This document shows positions 2,016 to 49,490 of a DNA stretch of 64,000 bases, in pieces. Each line of letters starts with the position of its first letter. Positions within the stretch are counted from its first letter, which is position 1. The notes beneath the pieces are model-generated. The model saw only the letters and a list, made by a program, of their open reading frames with translations. It was not told where the DNA came from and made no database searches. The position numbers were made by a program, and so were the translations under genes. The stretch comes from Raja brachyura (taxonomy: Eukaryota). The stretch is from the NCBI GenBank assembly GCA_963514005.1, contig OY740781.1, positions 160,022,001 through 160,086,000 of the forward strand, given 5' to 3'.

Positions 2016-4933
2016 CATAGAAACATACAGCAGAAGAACACGCCTTCAGGCCCACAATGTCTGCGCCGAACATGATGCCAAGGCAAAATCTTATCCTATT
2101 GCACATATGCCATATCCGTATATTCATTGCAAAATTGTACACCATACTCCAGAATTGGTCTTACCAATCAAGTTAATCAATTAACTCACAGTTATGGAGT
2201 GATCATACTTTTTAGTCGTAAAGAAGCAGTAGTCCGATTTAAAAGAAGGAAACATAAGCATGAATCAGTGCTCAGTGCTTTTCAAGTGTAAAGGTGACAA
2301 GCGATTATGATTAAAAGGCTTTGCTATTTATCTTTGTGAAGTCAGTGATAAGGTTAGGAGCTCAGACCGCAAACATGCAATAACATTGTTCATGGAATGT
2401 GGGTTTATAATTTTCTCAGTTGAGGGTACACTGCAGTTTTCGATGCTTTCAGGTGTGTTTCAGATTGATGGCTGTCTCCACATTGTCACCTTCCCCTCGG
2501 CTAACAGTGAACTGTTCTACATTCCCTCAACCGCTTTGATCGCTCGTTTTCGCACCTTACCCTTCCATATCTCTAGTCTCCCTTTCTCCTGACTCTCAGT
2601 CTGAAGAAGGGTCTCGACCTGAAACATCACCAATTCCTTCTCTCCAGAGATGATGCCTGTCCCGCTGAGTTACTCCAGCATTTTGGTATTCCTACTTCAG
2701 CATTAAAGGATGTTCCTTCGGGAAGGAGATGAGCAGGAATTTATTTAGGCAGAGGGTGGAATTCATTGCCACAGAAGGCTGTGGAGGCCTAGTCAATGGA
2801 TATTTCTACGGCAGAGATAGTGTAGATAGATTCTTGATTAATAAGGGTGACAGGGGTTATGGGGAGAAGGCAGGAGAATGGGGTTAGGAGGGAGAGATAG
2901 ATCAGCCATGATTGATTGGGGGAGTAGACTGGATGGGCAGAATGGGTCCAATTCTGCTCCGAGAACCTATGACCTTATGATCGTAATCGAAGGAGCAGAG
3001 ACCAGACTCCTTGCCTGGGTGAGTTTGCACCTTGACTGCATCTTGCTGTCCCTCTGTACATTCATTTCAGGCAGCTTCTGCATTCTGTGATGCACCCTCA
3101 GTGTGGCCCATCAACTGCTTGGCTTCCGGCAAAGGGAGTCTGGAACCTGGTCACCAGTAGCCAGTGGTAGACACAAAATGCTGGGGCAACTCAGCGGGAC
3201 AGGCAGCATTATATAGTCATTCATGTGCTGCACCTGTTGATGACAGCCTGGCTCTATTGTGGAATGTAATTAGGTATGTAATTTAGCCTAACCTTATTCA
3301 TACCTAATCCAATTTAAAGCATAAATGGTGCATTCAAGTGTAAGTTAAAAGACTCGCTACAGTATGCACCAGATTGCATAATTTCAAGCTGAAAAATGTA
3401 AAAGCTCCTTACCGTGGGAGGTTTTCCACGCAGCTATTATTCAGAACATTGGCACAAAAGCATTCCCGCTTTTTCAAGTGGGTTAGCTCCAGCTGCCCTG
3501 GAGAAATACTCCAGCATTTTGTTATTCCTACCTCAGAATTAAAGGATGTTCCTCCAGGAAGGAGATGAGCAGGAATTTTTTTAGGCAGAGGGTGGAATTC
3601 ATTGCCACAGAAAGCTGTGGAGGCCTAGTCAATGGATATTTATACGGCAGAGATAGTGTAGATGGACACTTGATTAGTACGGGTGACTCCTTGCCTGGGT
3701 GAGTTTGCACCTTTAGTGCATCTTGCTGTCCCTCCGTACATTCATTTCAGGCAGATTCTGCATTCTGTGATGCACCCTCAGGGTGGCCCATCAACTGCTG
3801 GGCTTCTGGCAAAGGGAGTCTGAAACCAGTGGTAGACACAAAATGCTGGGGTAACTCAGCGGGACAGGCAGCATCTCTGGAGAGAAGGAATGGGTGACTT
3901 TTCGGGTCGAGGCCCTTCTTCAGTTTAAACCAGCATCTGCAGTTCCTTCCTACACACTCCTGTACCCAGAGTCAGGTGGCAGGCATTCACTAATGTGAGA
4001 GTGGTCTGAAGGGTGGGAGAGGCCAAGCCACTGGCAATGAATGGAGGGAAGAGGGGGGAGGGGTCTGGAGTCTGATGGAACAGCCGAGGACATATTTGAG
4101 ACCAGGGCAATCCCACAGTCCTGTACCCGGACCTCCCCATATACAATGCGGACACCCAACCTATCTGATCCACTCTGCCAGATAAGTAGACTAGCCAATC
4201 TTGCATCTACCATGAATGGCAGAGCAGACTTGATGGGCCAAATGGACTAATTCTGCTCCTGTAATTTATGATACGTCAGCCCATGTAGAAGCAAGGATTG
4301 TGGAAGAACAGCGGACAGGTGGTAAGGGGTTGGGGAACGGAAACGGACGTGGATATCTTCTCTCCCACTTCCCGACTGCAGGGGCCAAAAGAAACGGGTC
4401 AATCTGGGTAAAATGGAACAGGTTGGAATCCTATTCTCCGAACAGCGGATCTGATTTTCTTGTTTAAATTGACAGAACCGTTGAATGAATGAAAATCCAA
4501 ATTGCCATTGAATTCAGAGTCCCTCAAATGAAGAAGAAACTTGGCACGGATGAGAATGTCATTGGCCTTTGTGTTACTTCCTTTAGAATTGCAAGGGAAG
4601 GGAATCTAACAAAGAGGTACAAACTGCTGCTGGAAGGCACGGGCTGGAAATGTGCCCAGGCTGTGGCACAAAGGGAGCAGATCGCAAAAGTATTTCATCT
4701 TGTTTGAAAATGGTTTTGTATTTGTGTTTTTTGCATTTGCCTTGTGGTGCTTCTGTGCAAAAATCTGTGTTTATGCGATTGCAACTACAAACTGCATGAA
4801 GTTGCACCTACGTAATATCTTTAAGACAGGAAACATGCTTTATGGAGAATCATTGGGTTGCTGTTGCTGCAAGACCTGGATGGATCCGGAATAGTGTTTG
4901 AAAGCTTGGTCAAAGACTCGGGCAGTGGTAAAA

Positions 4934-22914: not shown

Positions 22915-23820
22915 CTTGGAGCGCAGGAGGATGAGGGGTGATCTTATTGAGGTGTACAAAATCATGAGGGGAATAGATTGGGTAAATGCCCAGAGTCTCT
23001 TGCCCAGTAGGGCAGTCGAGAATCAGAGGACATAGGTTTAAGGTGATGGGGGAAGGATTTAATAGGAACCTGAGGGATAATTTACACAGAGGGCAATGAG
23101 TGTATGGAATGATGCTGCTGGAAGAGGAAGTTGAGGCAGGTACTATCGCTACATTTAAGAAACATTTAGACAGGTACATGGATAGGTTAGGTTTAGAGGA
23201 TATGGACCAAGTGTGGCAGGTGGGACTGGTCTAGATAACACACTTTGTTCGGTGTGGACAAGTTGGGCCGAAGGGTCTGATTGCACGCAGTATCGCTTTA
23301 TGAGATGGAGACCATACACTCACCACCGTTTGTGTAAAGAAAGTTACCCCTCAGGTTCCTATTAAACCTTTCTCTCTTCACTTTAAACCTATGTCCTCTG
23401 ATTCTCAACTCCCCTACTGCTTCTTCCGTGTGGCGTGCACAGCCTAAAGTTGTTGGACAACTTGTTCTATTTGATCTTCCGTTTGTGCACGTTGAGTTGA
23501 TTGCATTAATCGGAACAGGGTGGGCCACGTGAAGGTTGGAATCTTCCACTCCGACTCCCCTACTCTGGGCAAGACACTCTGTGCGTTTACCCAATCTAAT
23601 ACCCTCATGATTTTTTACACCTCTAAGATCACCCCTCGTCCTCCTGCGCTCCAGGGAATAGAGCTCCAGCCTGTTTAATCCTTCCCCATCGCACAGCCCC
23701 CCCAGTCCTGTCTCCATCCCGGTAAATCTTCTCTGCACCCTTTCCAACTTGACAACATCATTCCTACAACATGGTGCCCAAAACTGAACACAATGAGGCC
23801 TCACCAACATCTTATATAAA
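22915..23820. mobile_element. CR1 fragments (+ 22915-23295; - 23320-23820)
   Basis: LERRRMRGDLIEVYKIM and LERVQRRFT motifs. Confidence 0.85.
23419..23552 (-). mobile_element. Same HDV-ribozyme-headed retroposon, copy B (decayed), inserted in a CR1
   Basis: Minus strand GGAGTGG AAG ATTCCA ACC TTCACGT GGC CCACCCT GT TCCGA T TAA TGCAAT ... CGCCACACGGAAGAAG; TSD aactcccctact (23407-23418) / gactcccctact (23553-23564). Confidence 0.78.
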
Positions 23821-29682: not shown

Positions 29683-31500
29683 AGTGAATCTCCCCAGTGG
29701 ATTACAACGTCCCTAAAGTGGTGACCAGAACTGCACACAGTACTCCAAGTGGAGCCCGACTGGTGTCTTGCAATGTTTAAACATCACATCCCAATTCTTT
29801 TCATCTAAGCGCACCACTGTTCTTCATCACCGCCATCTCAATCTGCGTTGCTACTTTCAGAGAAGCATGGACTTGGAGTCCAAGGTCTCCCTGTTCATCA
29901 CCATTCCTCACTGCCCAACCATTTACTGATTTGTCCTCCTGGTATTGGACATCCCAAAATACATTACCTGACACTTATTAGTATTAAATTCCATCAGTGA
30001 ATGCTGCGCCTAACTTTCTAAATGATCTATATCCTGCTGCAGCCTTACACAGCTTTCCCTGAACACCACAATATCACCAATGTTTGCTTCATCAGCAAAC
30101 ATACTCCGCATTCCATCTTCATTCACATCCAAGTTGCTAAGGGTGGTGAAACTGTAGAATCATTTGCTACAGAAGGCTGTGGGAGCCAAGTCAATGGATA
30201 TTTTTAAGGCAGAGGTAGATTCTTGATTAGTACGGGTTTCAAGGGTTATGGGGAGAGGGCAGGAAAATGGGGTTAGGAGGGAGAGATAGATCAGCCATGA
30301 TTGAATGGTGGAGTAGACTCGATGGGCCGAATGGCATAATTCTGCTCCCATCACTTATTACCTAGCATACACTGCAAACAGCAGAGGTTCCTAGAAACAA
30401 TCGCTATGGAACACAAAGGACAAAGGACATTTATTGTCACATACACCAATTGGTGTGGTGAAATGTGTCTTGCCATGCAGCACATAGATAAACATAGGAC
30501 ATAACATTAAAGAATTTAACATAAACATAAAAAACATCCCCCCACAATGGTTCCCATTATGAGGGCAGGCACAAAGTCCAGACCCCATCCCCAGTTCACC
30601 CATAGTCGGGCCTATTGAGGCCCCAACAGTCGCCGCTATGAGGGCCGATGTTCCAGGCCCTTCACGCCGGGTGATGGTGCTCTGGCGACGGGAGAACCCT
30701 CTCAGCGGCTCAGGGTGCCTGTAATGGCCGCTTCCTTCCGGAACACAATGCCTGTGGTACAAATGCACAATTACCAAAGTATGTTTTTCAACAATGCTTT
30801 CTCCTTGTATTTTGTGGATTGCCAACCCTATTAAAAAAAAATGTATACAAAAAAACATTCTAAATATATATTAATACTTCAGTATCCAAGCATCATTGGC
30901 CAGGCAGCATCAAAATGCCCATTTCTCCAATTGCCATTGAATTGAACAGCATTTCATACAGCATTTTTAGGGTTGTTCACCCATTCCTTCTCTCCAAAGA
31001 TGCTGTCTGTCCCGCTGAGTTACCCCAACATTTTGTGTCTACCTTCAGACTGAAGAAAGGTGCTGACCAAAATGTCACCTATCCATTCCCTCATCAGATG
31101 TTTCCCGACCCATGGAGTTCCTCCAGCACTTTTCTTTTCGCTCAACATCCCAGCATGTGTCGTCTCTTGTGTCTCCCTGCTCCAAGAAACTGTCCGACAT
31201 CATCACTGTACACCACTATGGAAACTATATGTAGTCAATTCTGCTTCTAGAGTTGTCCAAATTCAAGAGACAATAGTCTGCATGCTGTTGAGAAAAAGCT
31301 TAAATAAATGGAAATTTGATTGTAATTATGTAAGTAACAATTTTACAAGAACACGGACAAAGCTTTCCCTTTTTAGGTTATTAACCTGTATTAATGAAAG
31401 GACTATAACTGCATTAGTTTTAATGAATAAGAGTAATTTCAGCTTGCATTATCCTATTGACGGCACAATAAATCTGCTAAATTGTTTCAAATACCTCAAC

Positions 31501-31640
31501 TTCTTCTTCTTCTTGCATATGGCGTGCACAGCCTAAAGTTGGACAACGTGTTCTATTTGATCTTATTTGATTGTGCATGCCAGGTTGATTGCTTTCGTCA
31601 AAACAGGGCGAACCACGTGAAGGTTGCAATCTCCCACCCC
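31501..31640 (-). mobile_element. Short non-autonomous retroposon with 5' HDV-like ribozyme and (GAA)n tail (Ingi/Vingi-like), copy A
   Basis: Minus strand starts GGGGTGG GAG ATTGCA ACC TTCACGT GGT TCGCCCT GT TTTGA C GAA AGCAAT and ends CGCCATATGC(AAG)n; 12-bp TSD aaatacctcaac (31489-31500) / aaagaccgcaac (31641-31652). Confidence 0.8.
31588..31640 (-). ncRNA. HDV-like self-cleaving ribozyme motif (minimal, almost no P4)
   Basis: P1 GGGGUGG/UCGCCCU with G1-U wobble, P2 AUUGC/GCAAU, P3 ACC/GGU, L3 UUCACGU, J4/2 C-GAA, in HDV order. Confidence 0.75.
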
Positions 31641-32139
31641 AAAGACCGCAACCATTGTGATTTACTTTTTTTTTTAAATACACATCTTTTCCAACCAGTA
31701 TGTAACATCTTAGGAATAGAGAAATAGTATCAGAAGCCTAGGTTTGTATGTTTTATGCCCCAGGCATTTCCACCAATATTTCCAAAGTTATTAATCATTG
31801 AAAACGGCCTTCTCAGAGACAGCTTCCAGCCTTTTCACAGTGATGATGTCCCAATGCCTCTCACAGTGCACCAATCACAATGGGCTCCCAAGCTGGCTGC
31901 CACAATGACATCACAATAGGTCATTGCCAACAATAACAATTGTTTGTAGTATGTTGTTTGTTTGTTTGTTTGGTTTTTTGCACAAAGTCCGCAGGCACGG
32001 CCACTTTTCATTTCACTGCACATCCCGTATGTGTATGTGATGAATAAACTTGACTTGACCCCTCAAGCTGGCTGCAAACTGCCACAATGACATCACAATG
32101 TCACGTCGCCAATGGTAACGTGGTTTCTGCCCCTCTACC

Positions 32140-47355: not shown

Positions 47356-47819
47356 AATTAAAACTTAAGATTAAATTGAGTTTTTCCTCTTTCCAAGTTC
47401 TGATATGAACCTTAAGCCCAGAGTTTCTTTTGCCACAAACGCTGCTGGGCTTTTCCATCATTTTCTGGTTTTTATTTCAGTTTTCCCTCATCTGCAATTT
47501 AGAACAAAATCCTACCGTTTATAACTTTTGATGCATAGCTTATTTTGATCGGAGCACTAGCAAAAGAATAGAATGCAGATAGCCATCTCTCGGCATTGAC
47601 ACATATGGCAGTCACATTAGTGATCATTTTGGCTTGGTTGGCAGTCAATTATGAACAAGAATTTTCCAGCATTCAGCATTTCCAGACTAGAACCTGACAT
47701 TTTTCTTTCTGGGTCTGTGAACCAGTGCACAAGATGGTGCCCCTTATTCATTGCTACCATGTTCTCATTCTTTCGCTAACGGTCGGTTAAAATCTGTTTG
47801 TACAATTAGAAGTCAATTC

Positions 47820-49490
47820 AACCTTTTTTAAAAAAATTGATAATATTGTTAATAGTTTTATCTGGGATTATAAAAATCATAGAATAAGTAAAAAACATTT
47901 ATGTAAGTCAAAGATAAACGGAGGATTAGCACTTCCAAATTTTCTATACTACTTCTGGGCAGTACAGATTAAGAATATGAATTTTTGGTGGGTAAATACG
48001 GACCTGGAACCAACGTGGCTAAAGATAGAAAAGGAAGATTGTTTGCCTTTCAACGTAGATTCAATTATTTTTGCCCCAAAGGAAGTTCAAAAAAAAATTT
48101 ATAGGGACAATCCAATCATTTATAATAATAGACGTATTTGGAAACAAATAGTCAAGACTTTACAATTAGACAATCTTTCATTTAGATTACCAATTATGAA
48201 TAACCCATTATTTAAGCCCTCCACATTGGATGGAGGGTTCAGACATTGGGATAATTTAGGAATTACAAGGGTAGAGCACCTCTATAGAAATGGAAAATTT
48301 CTTTCATTTCAGGAATTACAAGATATCTACGGATTGTCTTCACAGCATTTGTTTAGGTATTTCCAAATTAGAGATTATATTAAATCTAATACACAGGATT
48401 TTAAAAATAAGGAACCAGGATTATTAGATGAATCGTTTAACTGGCATCCAACCACAGAAAAATTAATAGCTTATATATATAACATCATTATGGATAAGGA
48501 GAATCCAATAACTGAAACATATCGTCAAGCATGGGAAAATGAAATTGGATCACCTATAACCAAAGAAAATTGGGAAGAAAGTCTACAACGAATACACCGG
48601 TGCTCGTTAAATGCTAGACATATATTAATACAATTTAAAGTATTATACAGATTACAGTATTCAAAAACCAAATTAAATAGTATATTTCCTAATCTCTCCT
48701 CTATTTGTGACAAATGTAAGAATTTAGAAGCAAATTTAACACACAGTTTTGTTACATGTCCTAAATTGAATTATTATTGGACAGAAATTTTTAAAGTAAT
48801 TTCTGAAGTTCTTAAGGTTAAATTAGAACCTGACCCAAAGCTAATAATACTGGGAATTCCAGAGGCTAATTTGATATTTACACTAGATCAAAGAAATTTC
48901 CTTGATTATTGTTTGATATTAGGGAAAAAAATAATATTGAAATTTTGGAAGGGAACATTATCCCCAACAATTAAAATGTGGGCATCAGAGATGTTGGAGA
49001 CGTTGCAGTTGGAAAGAATCAGATTTGTCCTTTTGGACGAGTATAATTCTTTTCAACAGATATGGTCTCCATATATACAGTATTTAGAGAAGTAGCTGTT
49101 CTTGGCATCACGGCTCGACTGACACCCTGCGGGATTTGATGAAAATAATGTATTGGTATACCAGGATATATGCATGTCTTTACTGATATTATTATTTGTA
49201 GTTGTTTCATTTATAATATATTGTGTGGCTTTTAATTGATATATATACATAATATGTCTTTTTTCTTTTTCTTCATTTTTTCTTTTTCTTTTATACCAAA
49301 TAATTATTAAGGAATTATAATTTTATTGATTAATAATGGTATTTCTCTTTACCCACTTTTATTTAAAAAAAAAATAAGATAATAATCATTAGAGTACAAA
49401 TATTGATTTAAGTTGATGTTTATAACTCAGTTTTAAACATTGAGAATTGTTTATTGCTAATAAAAAAATTATTCAAAACAAAAAAAAAAA
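47820..49490 (+). mobile_element. 5'-truncated young L1-clade LINE (ORF2 C-terminal part, 3' UTR, poly(A))
   Basis: Stop-free frame 47821-49095 (FIW...GGLALPNF, CCHC finger CDKC...THSFVTC); AATAAA and A-tail; TSD aagtcaattc at 47810-47819 / 49489-49498. Confidence 0.9.

Follow-up and report, generated by a model that had tools for sequence, protein, structure and literature searches.

A short skate retroposon assembled from the two ends of a Vingi-type LINE and headed by a predicted minimal HDV-like ribozyme

The stretch of DNA considered here (the window, 64,000 nucleotides in length) comes from the skate Raja brachyura (GenBank assembly GCA_963514005.1, contig OY740781.1, positions 160,022,001 to 160,086,000 of the forward strand). 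On its minus strand, at 31501..31640, lies a 140-nt retroposon that combines the two ends of a long interspersed nuclear element (LINE) and begins with a predicted self-cleaving ribozyme of the hepatitis delta virus (HDV) type. The first base of the element, G1, is at 31640, and its (GAA)4 tail occupies 31512-31501. A 12-bp target site duplication (TSD) flanks the insertion, with the upstream copy (31641..31652) abutting G1 and identical at 10/12 positions to the downstream copy (31489..31500). These features had been described in an earlier sequence-only reading of the window and are present as claimed, as is a second copy with the same start and a TSD of the same size. This copy, also on the minus strand, extends over 23420..23552, starts at 23552 and has a 12-bp TSD (23564-23553 and 23418-23407) that is identical at 11/12 positions. 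The two copies represent different subfamilies, designated A for the first and B for the second, and the ribozyme of the second is decayed (G3A, G14C, U29C and the reported loss of the catalytic C, C44U).

The 5' portion of the element (31561..31640, minus strand; ~nt 1-78) is homologous to the 5' end of a LINE family designated V0, with 81-89% identity to the V0 heads at loci L150, L191-L195, L201 and L204. The 3' portion (31501..31541, minus strand) is homologous to the last codons, stop codon (TAG, 31535-31533), 3' untranslated region (UTR) and (GAA)n of V0, and is found whole in 27/30 of the V0 3' ends shown. Between them is a linker of ~20 nt (31542..31560, minus strand; short by 3 nt in the window copy) that is absent from V0 copies in a motif scan of V0 loci, and that may have arisen by a short duplication and fold-back of the 3' segment, which it resembles. 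The fold-back forms a hairpin within a longer stem between the 5' and 3' portions (z -4.07 in L023, -1.56 in L050 and -0.66 in the window copy). Plain minimum free energy folding misses the pseudoknot, and the z-score of the whole element is unremarkable (-1.33). Element nt ~60-69 and ~115-124 are complementary over 9-10 bp (GGCGUGCACA / UGUGCACGCC in subfamily A), and the V0 5' UTR and 3' end are likewise complementary; these halves are 3 kb apart in the LINE, which suggests end-to-end pairing of the LINE RNA. About 60% of the length of the element is non-ribozyme, which refines its initial description as little more than a ribozyme and a tail.

Judged by sequence, the parent of the short element is V0, a 3.1-kb Vingi-type LINE of the same genome with one open reading frame (ORF) that encodes an apurinic-like endonuclease (APE) and a reverse transcriptase (RT), without RNase H. 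An autonomous element of this kind, sharing both ends of the short element, had been anticipated. A search with the endonuclease family returned mostly Nimb/I elements, along with L098, a degenerate 3.15-kb APE-RT element whose protein, used as a query, recovered several related families, V0 among them. The V0 copy at L150 starts with the first ~75 nt of the short element and continues into the APE ORF, and V0 copies finish with its last ~41 nt, in which three codons and the stop are followed by a short UTR and (GAA)n. Both L193 and L195 are V0 copies of full length, the former with an 11-bp TSD. An intact relative of 1019 aa, P0001, is 64-71% identical to V0 pieces and tiles L195 over residues 19-1019, ending at the shared stop. 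Matches to Pfam PF14529 and PF00078 were obtained in these families; RNase H was not detected by Pfam in the C-terminal pieces of V0, V1, V4 and V5, and is present in the Nimb element L107. V0 thus fits the description of Vingi elements as compact, single-ORF LINEs with APE and RT domains and no RNase H (PMC13708176; this and the other papers are cited for the portions available). A link to named Vingi elements at the DNA level is provided by the V6 and V8 heads, which by eye resemble the Vingi-1_BF and Vingi-2_Gav heads in the supplement of PMC5786205.

V0 is present in low copy number (50 and 740 first-look candidates for the 5' and 3' parts of the ORF), and all of the copies sampled are broken. 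In DNA contigs from four further organisms, 30/30 V0 bins are covered, with a strong 3' bias, and the head reaches a depth >1000-fold over that of the internal LINE. These contigs contain joints from LINE ~420-443 to ~3405-3417, several of which include linker letters at the 5'-to-3' junction. Two other sources were considered and rejected: Nimb/I elements have RNase H and a different 3' UTR (the first 30 PF14529 loci were Nimb/I without the head), and V1-V5 differ from the short element in both heads and 3' ends. Both ends of the short element come from one LINE, it has no ORF, and copies at many loci share the junction, TSDs and tail. Because it consists of the first ~78 and last ~41 nt of a LINE, it is a short internally deleted element (SIDE) rather than a classical short interspersed nuclear element (SINE), and of the earlier description as a ribozyme-headed SINE mobilised by a Vingi/Ingi LINE, the Vingi-type parent is retained and the SINE designation is not.

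The first 54 nt (31587..31640, minus strand) are predicted to form an HDV-like self-cleaving RNA without P4, based on a descriptor parse of family copies and on covariation across families. In the window copy, this fold contains P1 (31640-31634/31611-31605; 7 bp with a G1-U wobble), P2 (31631-31625/31593-31587, with an A-A mismatch), a 3-bp P3 (31624-31622/31614-31612) and L3 (31621-31615, UUCACGU). P1.1 is the pair C22-G37, a 5-nt loop replaces P4, and the first base of J4/2, C44 (31597), is the predicted catalytic C, its position taken from the parse and its role from the literature on HDV-like ribozymes. J4/2 is C-G-A-A in subfamily A and C-U-A-A in subfamily B and V0, in line with the pattern C-N-R-A. 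Intact copies parse perfectly, with a 7-bp P1, a 2-nt J1/2, a 7-bp P2, a 3-bp P3 and a 7-nt L3, and with C-G accompanied by U-U at P1.1; C44 is kept in 34/37 A copies and 31/36 B copies. In the window copy, a single P2 pair is mismatched, and the changes U48A, C30U and C41U are private to it. Its ribozyme is probably weakened, as judged from this model, and that of the second copy would be dead. The HDV-order fold proposed initially is borne out by this parse, with some revision of detail: a 5-bp P2 was read because of the private U48A, whereas the family has a 7-bp P2 (GAUUGCA/UGCAAUC) and a J1/2 of 2 nt instead of 3, and what had been taken for a tiny P4 is just the 5-nt loop.

A strict HDV descriptor gave 42 matches in 900,460 bases of loci, all of them at the heads of the short family or of Vingi-type LINEs, and 0 matches in five 400-kb shuffles, also when one mismatch was tolerated. 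The V1, V2, V4, V6 and V8 heads have the same parse, with other stem sequences and a longer P4. In an alignment of 12 Vingi-type heads, both partners have changed in 14/18 pairs and 92.5% of the cells are paired, a value that was reached by 0/500 shuffles (35-48% in slid controls), although the heads are related sequences and the comparison does not give a probability. P1.1 also covaries, from C-G to U-A in V2. The covariation expected by the sequence-only reading is therefore found across Vingi-type families, and not within the short family. The second copy is not evidence of this kind: its CCACCCU, which had been read as a P1 strand that still pairs, is the parent LINE state or the result of CpG decay, and the copy, a member of subfamily B, also has an A3-C34 mismatch in P1, broken P2 and P3 stems and C44U. 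Six V0 copies (L191, L194, L195, L201, L185 and L183) are otherwise 5'-complete but align only from nt 8-12 and, in contrast to the short element, lack the 5' strand of P1.

The HDV-like models of Rfam, suggested as a further check, did not identify the element, and no Rfam family reached its gathering cut-off in the window. At E 10, the window copy gave chance snoRNA and riboswitch matches only. An intact copy has a weak in-register match to HDV-F-prausnitzii (E 1.8), and its best HDV-type score is 14.4 bits, compared with a cut-off of 44 for RF02682; the HDV-type models include P4 and family-specific sequence.

The search of the genome returned a high-copy family with 5' ends uniform at G1, as had been predicted. 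Five copies were found in 40 unselected 10-kb stretches, which corresponds to ~34,000 per 2.7-Gb genome (Poisson 95% range 11,000-79,000). First-look candidates numbered 3936 for the first window copy and 2354 for the second, and the 40 scored for each define the two subfamilies. A TSD was scored in 62/73 near-full-length copies, 60 of which were chosen by similarity in a way that favours full length, and in 11/359 mismatched flank pairs. Its length is 11-13 bp in 46 of the 62 TSD-bearing copies, and it abuts G1 exactly in 48/62 and within one base in 14/62. In 400 kb of unselected DNA, where 5' ends are unbiased, 5/5 copies begin at nt 1, as do 9/10 copies encountered incidentally in other loci, the remaining one beginning at nt 3; no 5'-truncated copies were seen among these 5 random and 10 incidental copies. 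The base at position -1 of the 5' junction is T in 43, A in 14, C in 13 and G in 3 of the 73 copies, and the last TSD base is T in 32/48 and G in none. The T at -1 recurs in a loose-end consensus from four other organisms.

The element stretch is present in 20/23 of the public runs listed, which include nine organisms together with unlabelled and metagenome rows. The family is also present in the contigs of RNA-type runs, which give presence rather than ends or strand and miss the flanks of this locus. In the contigs of three such runs, a joint from 31640 to 31573 shows the first 68 nt repeated in tandem, as a double head. Divergence at non-CpG positions is 2-5% for V0 3' ends (n=30), 0-5% for subfamily B (n=6) and 4-8% for subfamily A (n=7), with overlapping ranges, small samples and a V0 set that is biased low.

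With good confidence, we read the element as the joined ends of a Vingi-type LINE whose predicted ribozyme likely cuts the RNA at G1 and whose RNA was likely copied by the LINE protein. A copy located inside a host transcription unit would be transcribed by read-through, and Mg2+-dependent cleavage 5' of G1 would release an RNA whose 5'-OH end is defined and protected by the pseudoknot, so that no RNA polymerase III (Pol III) promoter would be needed. The LINE ORF protein would then bind the shared 3' end and prime reverse transcription at a staggered nick, which would give TSDs mostly of 11-13 bp, often starting with A/G that match the GAA tail. An RNA of 140 nt would nearly always be copied in full, whereas the 3.1-kb parent would mostly be 5'-truncated, and this may be how the short form out-multiplied its parent. 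Inserted copies would decay neutrally. The family is probably no longer mobile, since the sampled copies of its parent are all broken.

A number of observations weigh against this reading. Compensatory changes are found only across families, with none inside the short family, and in the 12-head alignment two rows are one column out of register in P1. For several V0 heads, the alignment begins no earlier than nt 8-10. The contrast between subfamilies A and B, which speaks for the ribozyme, is modest: they are distinguished by 2/54 ribozyme positions (in J1/2 and at the N of C-N-R-A, both unconstrained) and by ~10 changes in the next 79 nt. The change U29C, which puts an A-C mismatch into P3, is found in 10/36 B copies, a sample selected by likeness to a U29C copy, and might represent a weak variant that has been propagated. 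Pairing of G37-U38 with A43-C44 around the UUCG loop could sequester the catalytic C. In a quick APE tree without named Vingi proteins, V0-V6 join APE-RT proteins of ~1000 aa, and Nimb falls in the same open fork. Finally, a uniform start at G1 is equally expected from an internal promoter that initiates at +1.

The last point underlies an alternative in which the head is an internal RNA polymerase II promoter fixing +1, and the inherited ribozyme fold does not make the 5' end of the short element. The Pr77 sequence of L1Tc sets a precedent, as it is both promoter and ribozyme, with transcripts from +1 (PMC3185411), and the frequency of U29C in the selected B sample would also suit this model. 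However, the differences among the V0, A and B master sequences avoid every constrained ribozyme position, and across Vingi-type families the fold is kept and the sequence is not. Copies with C44U are not in excess either: in subfamily B they number 94, compared with 75 for a context-matched control C-to-T change outside the ribozyme (p 0.17). As C44U is no commoner than this control, no dead-ribozyme lineage has visibly been amplified; such a lineage was sought in B and not found. A promoter acting in place of the ribozyme is thus improbable, and an internal promoter may coexist with cleavage.

It seems very unlikely that an element derived from V0 was mobilised mainly by a different GAA-tailed LINE, such as Nimb/I or V1, V3 or V4. 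These families (including Nimb L107 and L109) likewise end in (GAA)n, and the low copy number and broken state of V0 would be compatible with such a history, but V0, unlike the other families, matches the last ~41 nt, its divergence range overlaps that of the short element, and a TSD of the same size flanks one V0 copy. A classical Pol III SINE with a head that is ribozyme-like by chance, which the short length, high copy number, simple tail and a GTTCGA-like word near nt 37-43 that we take to recall a B box might suggest, is largely refuted by the LINE homology, as the 5' end of the LINE itself supplies the head, tRNA, 5S and 7SL gave no Rfam match even at E 10, and the HDV descriptor has a background of zero.

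A further result concerns the relationship of Vingi heads to the mammalian CPEB3 ribozyme. With the Rfam model RF00622, for which 59 of 137,320 first-look candidates were scored, 32 of the 58 matches listed in this genome are above the 35-bit cut-off (best 65.8 bits), and none is above cut-off in 14 control genomes. The V6, V7 and V8 heads pass the cut-off, and rescanning confirmed 8/8 loci. These CPEB3-like heads are found at L211-L231 and L233 (for example G000:C14:60648168-60648242, C31:29386599-29386673 and C4:64115344-64115421). L215 (56.3 bits) continues directly into a Vingi-type APE-RT ORF (44% to P0078, E 1e-75), and by eye L214 and L216 equal the CPEB3 consensus at 54 and 55 of 67 positions, including the P4 stem sequence. 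The V7 head is closest to CPEB3 in P4, although its 13 matches are all short and not tied to an ORF. The head of the window element is not listed against RF00622 even at E 10. Subfamily A shares with the CPEB3 ribozyme the L3 sequence UUCACGU, the G1-U wobble, the C-G plus U-U at P1.1 and C-G-A-A, whereas P1, P2 and P3 of the window head differ and P4 is missing.

Resemblances extend to reptile elements. For Vingi-2_Gav, Vingi-4_Crp and Vingi-1_BF, the supplement of PMC5786205 shows the 5' end, and for Vingi-2_SPur positions 395-451, which are internal. By eye, gharial Vingi-2_Gav equals the CPEB3 consensus at 38/40 first and 14/14 last positions (52/54 outside the distal P4), and its 7-bp P4 stem is also found in alligator SINE2-1_AMi. 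The stem sequences vary freely among other Vingi-type heads, and the window head has the same fold yet does not score, which argues that the CPEB3 match reflects common descent rather than convergence. The CPEB3 ribozyme is single-copy, intronic and conserved, and is reported as not found outside mammals (PMC8233481); five CPEB-domain loci were located in the skate genome, and the nearest RF00622 match listed is 3.9 Mb away. Domestication has been suggested for it in general terms, with no donor named in the available portion of PMC7761336, and the human genome holds Vingi traces, as X12_LINE (PMC5753468). On these sequence resemblances, a domesticated Vingi head is the likely origin of the CPEB3 ribozyme, a proposal in which both direction and donor lineage are inferred. 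On balance, we lean towards a joint reading, in which the Vingi head enables P4-less derivatives of 140 nt to multiply to tens of thousands in a vertebrate with no Pol III promoter, and the CPEB3 ribozyme descends by domestication from a Vingi 5' end whose insertion into the CPEB3 intron would date to an early mammal.

A second, independent short family of ~160-185 nt is present in the same genome (L232, L234, L235 and L295-L305; 2429 first-look candidates), with TSDs and a GAA tail. Its head is of the P4-less HDV type, and some copies are above the RF00622 cut-off; most have a 6-bp P1, so that activity is uncertain, and no parent LINE was found for the family. The occurrence of two such families suggests that the route is repeatable. 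Among other elements encountered, Nimb/I-type LINEs with RNase H (L107, L109 and L061-L090) are abundant and also end in (GAA)n. Decayed V3 copies (L143 and L147) have 85% protein identity to P0078, annotated in the cyprinid Siphateles boraxobius, and this resemblance likely reflects horizontal transfer involving a teleost and an elasmobranch. One V0 copy has an intronless ferritin ORF beside or within it (L191:2518-3033). A ferritin of this genome is closest to those of other skates, with 90% identity to Amblyraja radiata and 85% to Rhinoraja longicauda. ORFs at L206 presumably resemble a DIRS-type element. In the window itself, Pfam identified two RT fragments only and no host gene was placed among the ORFs searched (81/367, at least 60 aa, from the longest 140); a 434-aa open frame at 47791-49092 on the plus strand has no Pfam match.

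These results widen the range of ribozyme-headed retroposons to include a vertebrate, with a copy number on the SINE scale and an identified parent LINE, and place in a vertebrate genome a predicted minimal P4-less ribozyme of a type reported so far from metagenomes and phages. As a gene-writing tool under development, Vingi-1 is used with donor RNAs that carry its native 5' UTR, and the available portion of a review of gene-writing platforms mentions ribozymes for R2 only (PMC13708176). A self-cleaving Vingi 5' end, if true, would be relevant to the design of donors and to insertion at full length. If the descent of the CPEB3 ribozyme is as proposed, Vingi heads would provide a concrete candidate source and the missing outgroup for its evolution, the deeper nodes of which were described by Bendixsen in 2021 as not reconstructable for lack of outgroups (PMC8233481). 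Thousands of potentially self-cleaving inserts could also affect host transcripts when they lie in the sense orientation in introns.

Vingi is not among the ribozyme-bearing clades listed in the available portion of PMC5786205. A Vingi ribozyme, this family and a Vingi-CPEB3 link were not found in the literature searched, a scope that lies outside Repbase, Dfam and some key papers. The lancelet, sea-urchin and lamprey HDV-like ribozymes reportedly described by Webb in 2009 could be Vingi heads, as could those said to have been assigned to 'Ingi' by Ruminski in 2011, and both may bear on novelty. The presumption that the element was undescribed therefore holds for this family in the literature searched, and not for ribozyme-headed SIDEs as a type, since R2 SIDEs and NARTc/RIME are known.

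Close parallels in overall design are the Drosophila R2 SIDEs and R2/R1 hybrid SIDEs, whose ribozymes have been shown to cleave (PMC3414825). Like the skate element, R2 SIDEs are non-autonomous and combine a 5' HDV-like ribozyme and a LINE 3' end with an unrelated middle; unlike it, they are targeted to rDNA, low in copy number and longer (529 bp in R2Dwi_SIDE), with a ribozyme that contains P4 (PMC3414825). The skate element is dispersed in ~34,000 copies of 140 nt, has an APE-type Vingi parent and a vertebrate host, and lacks P4. NARTc and RIME of trypanosomes are likewise internal-deletion derivatives, from the Ingi clade, with an HDV-like head and a single-pair P1.1 (PMC3185411, PMC4035085), and cleavage by the NARTc ribozyme has been shown (PMC3185411). 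Their hosts are protists, the parent L1Tc has RNase H, and its 77-nt head doubles as a promoter (PMC3185411), whereas the skate parent has no RNase H and a 54-nt ribozyme. A bipartite structure of Vingi 5' and 3' ends is shared with Vingi-1_EE of the hedgehog and with SINE2-1_ACar and SINE2-1_AMi, although the two reptile SINEs have a tRNA head in front (PMC5786205); internal-deletion derivatives of Vingi are also described in PMC4494074. The predicted ribozyme itself resembles drz-Mtgn and the theta ribozymes, which also have no P4, the catalytic C first in J4/2 and a cleavage site at G1, but which are reported from gut metagenomes and phages, next to tRNAs (PMC10879173), whereas in the skate it heads a LINE and the short element derived from it. 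The element is real and well supported as a vertebrate, SINE-scale, P4-less, Vingi-headed form of a type that was already known.

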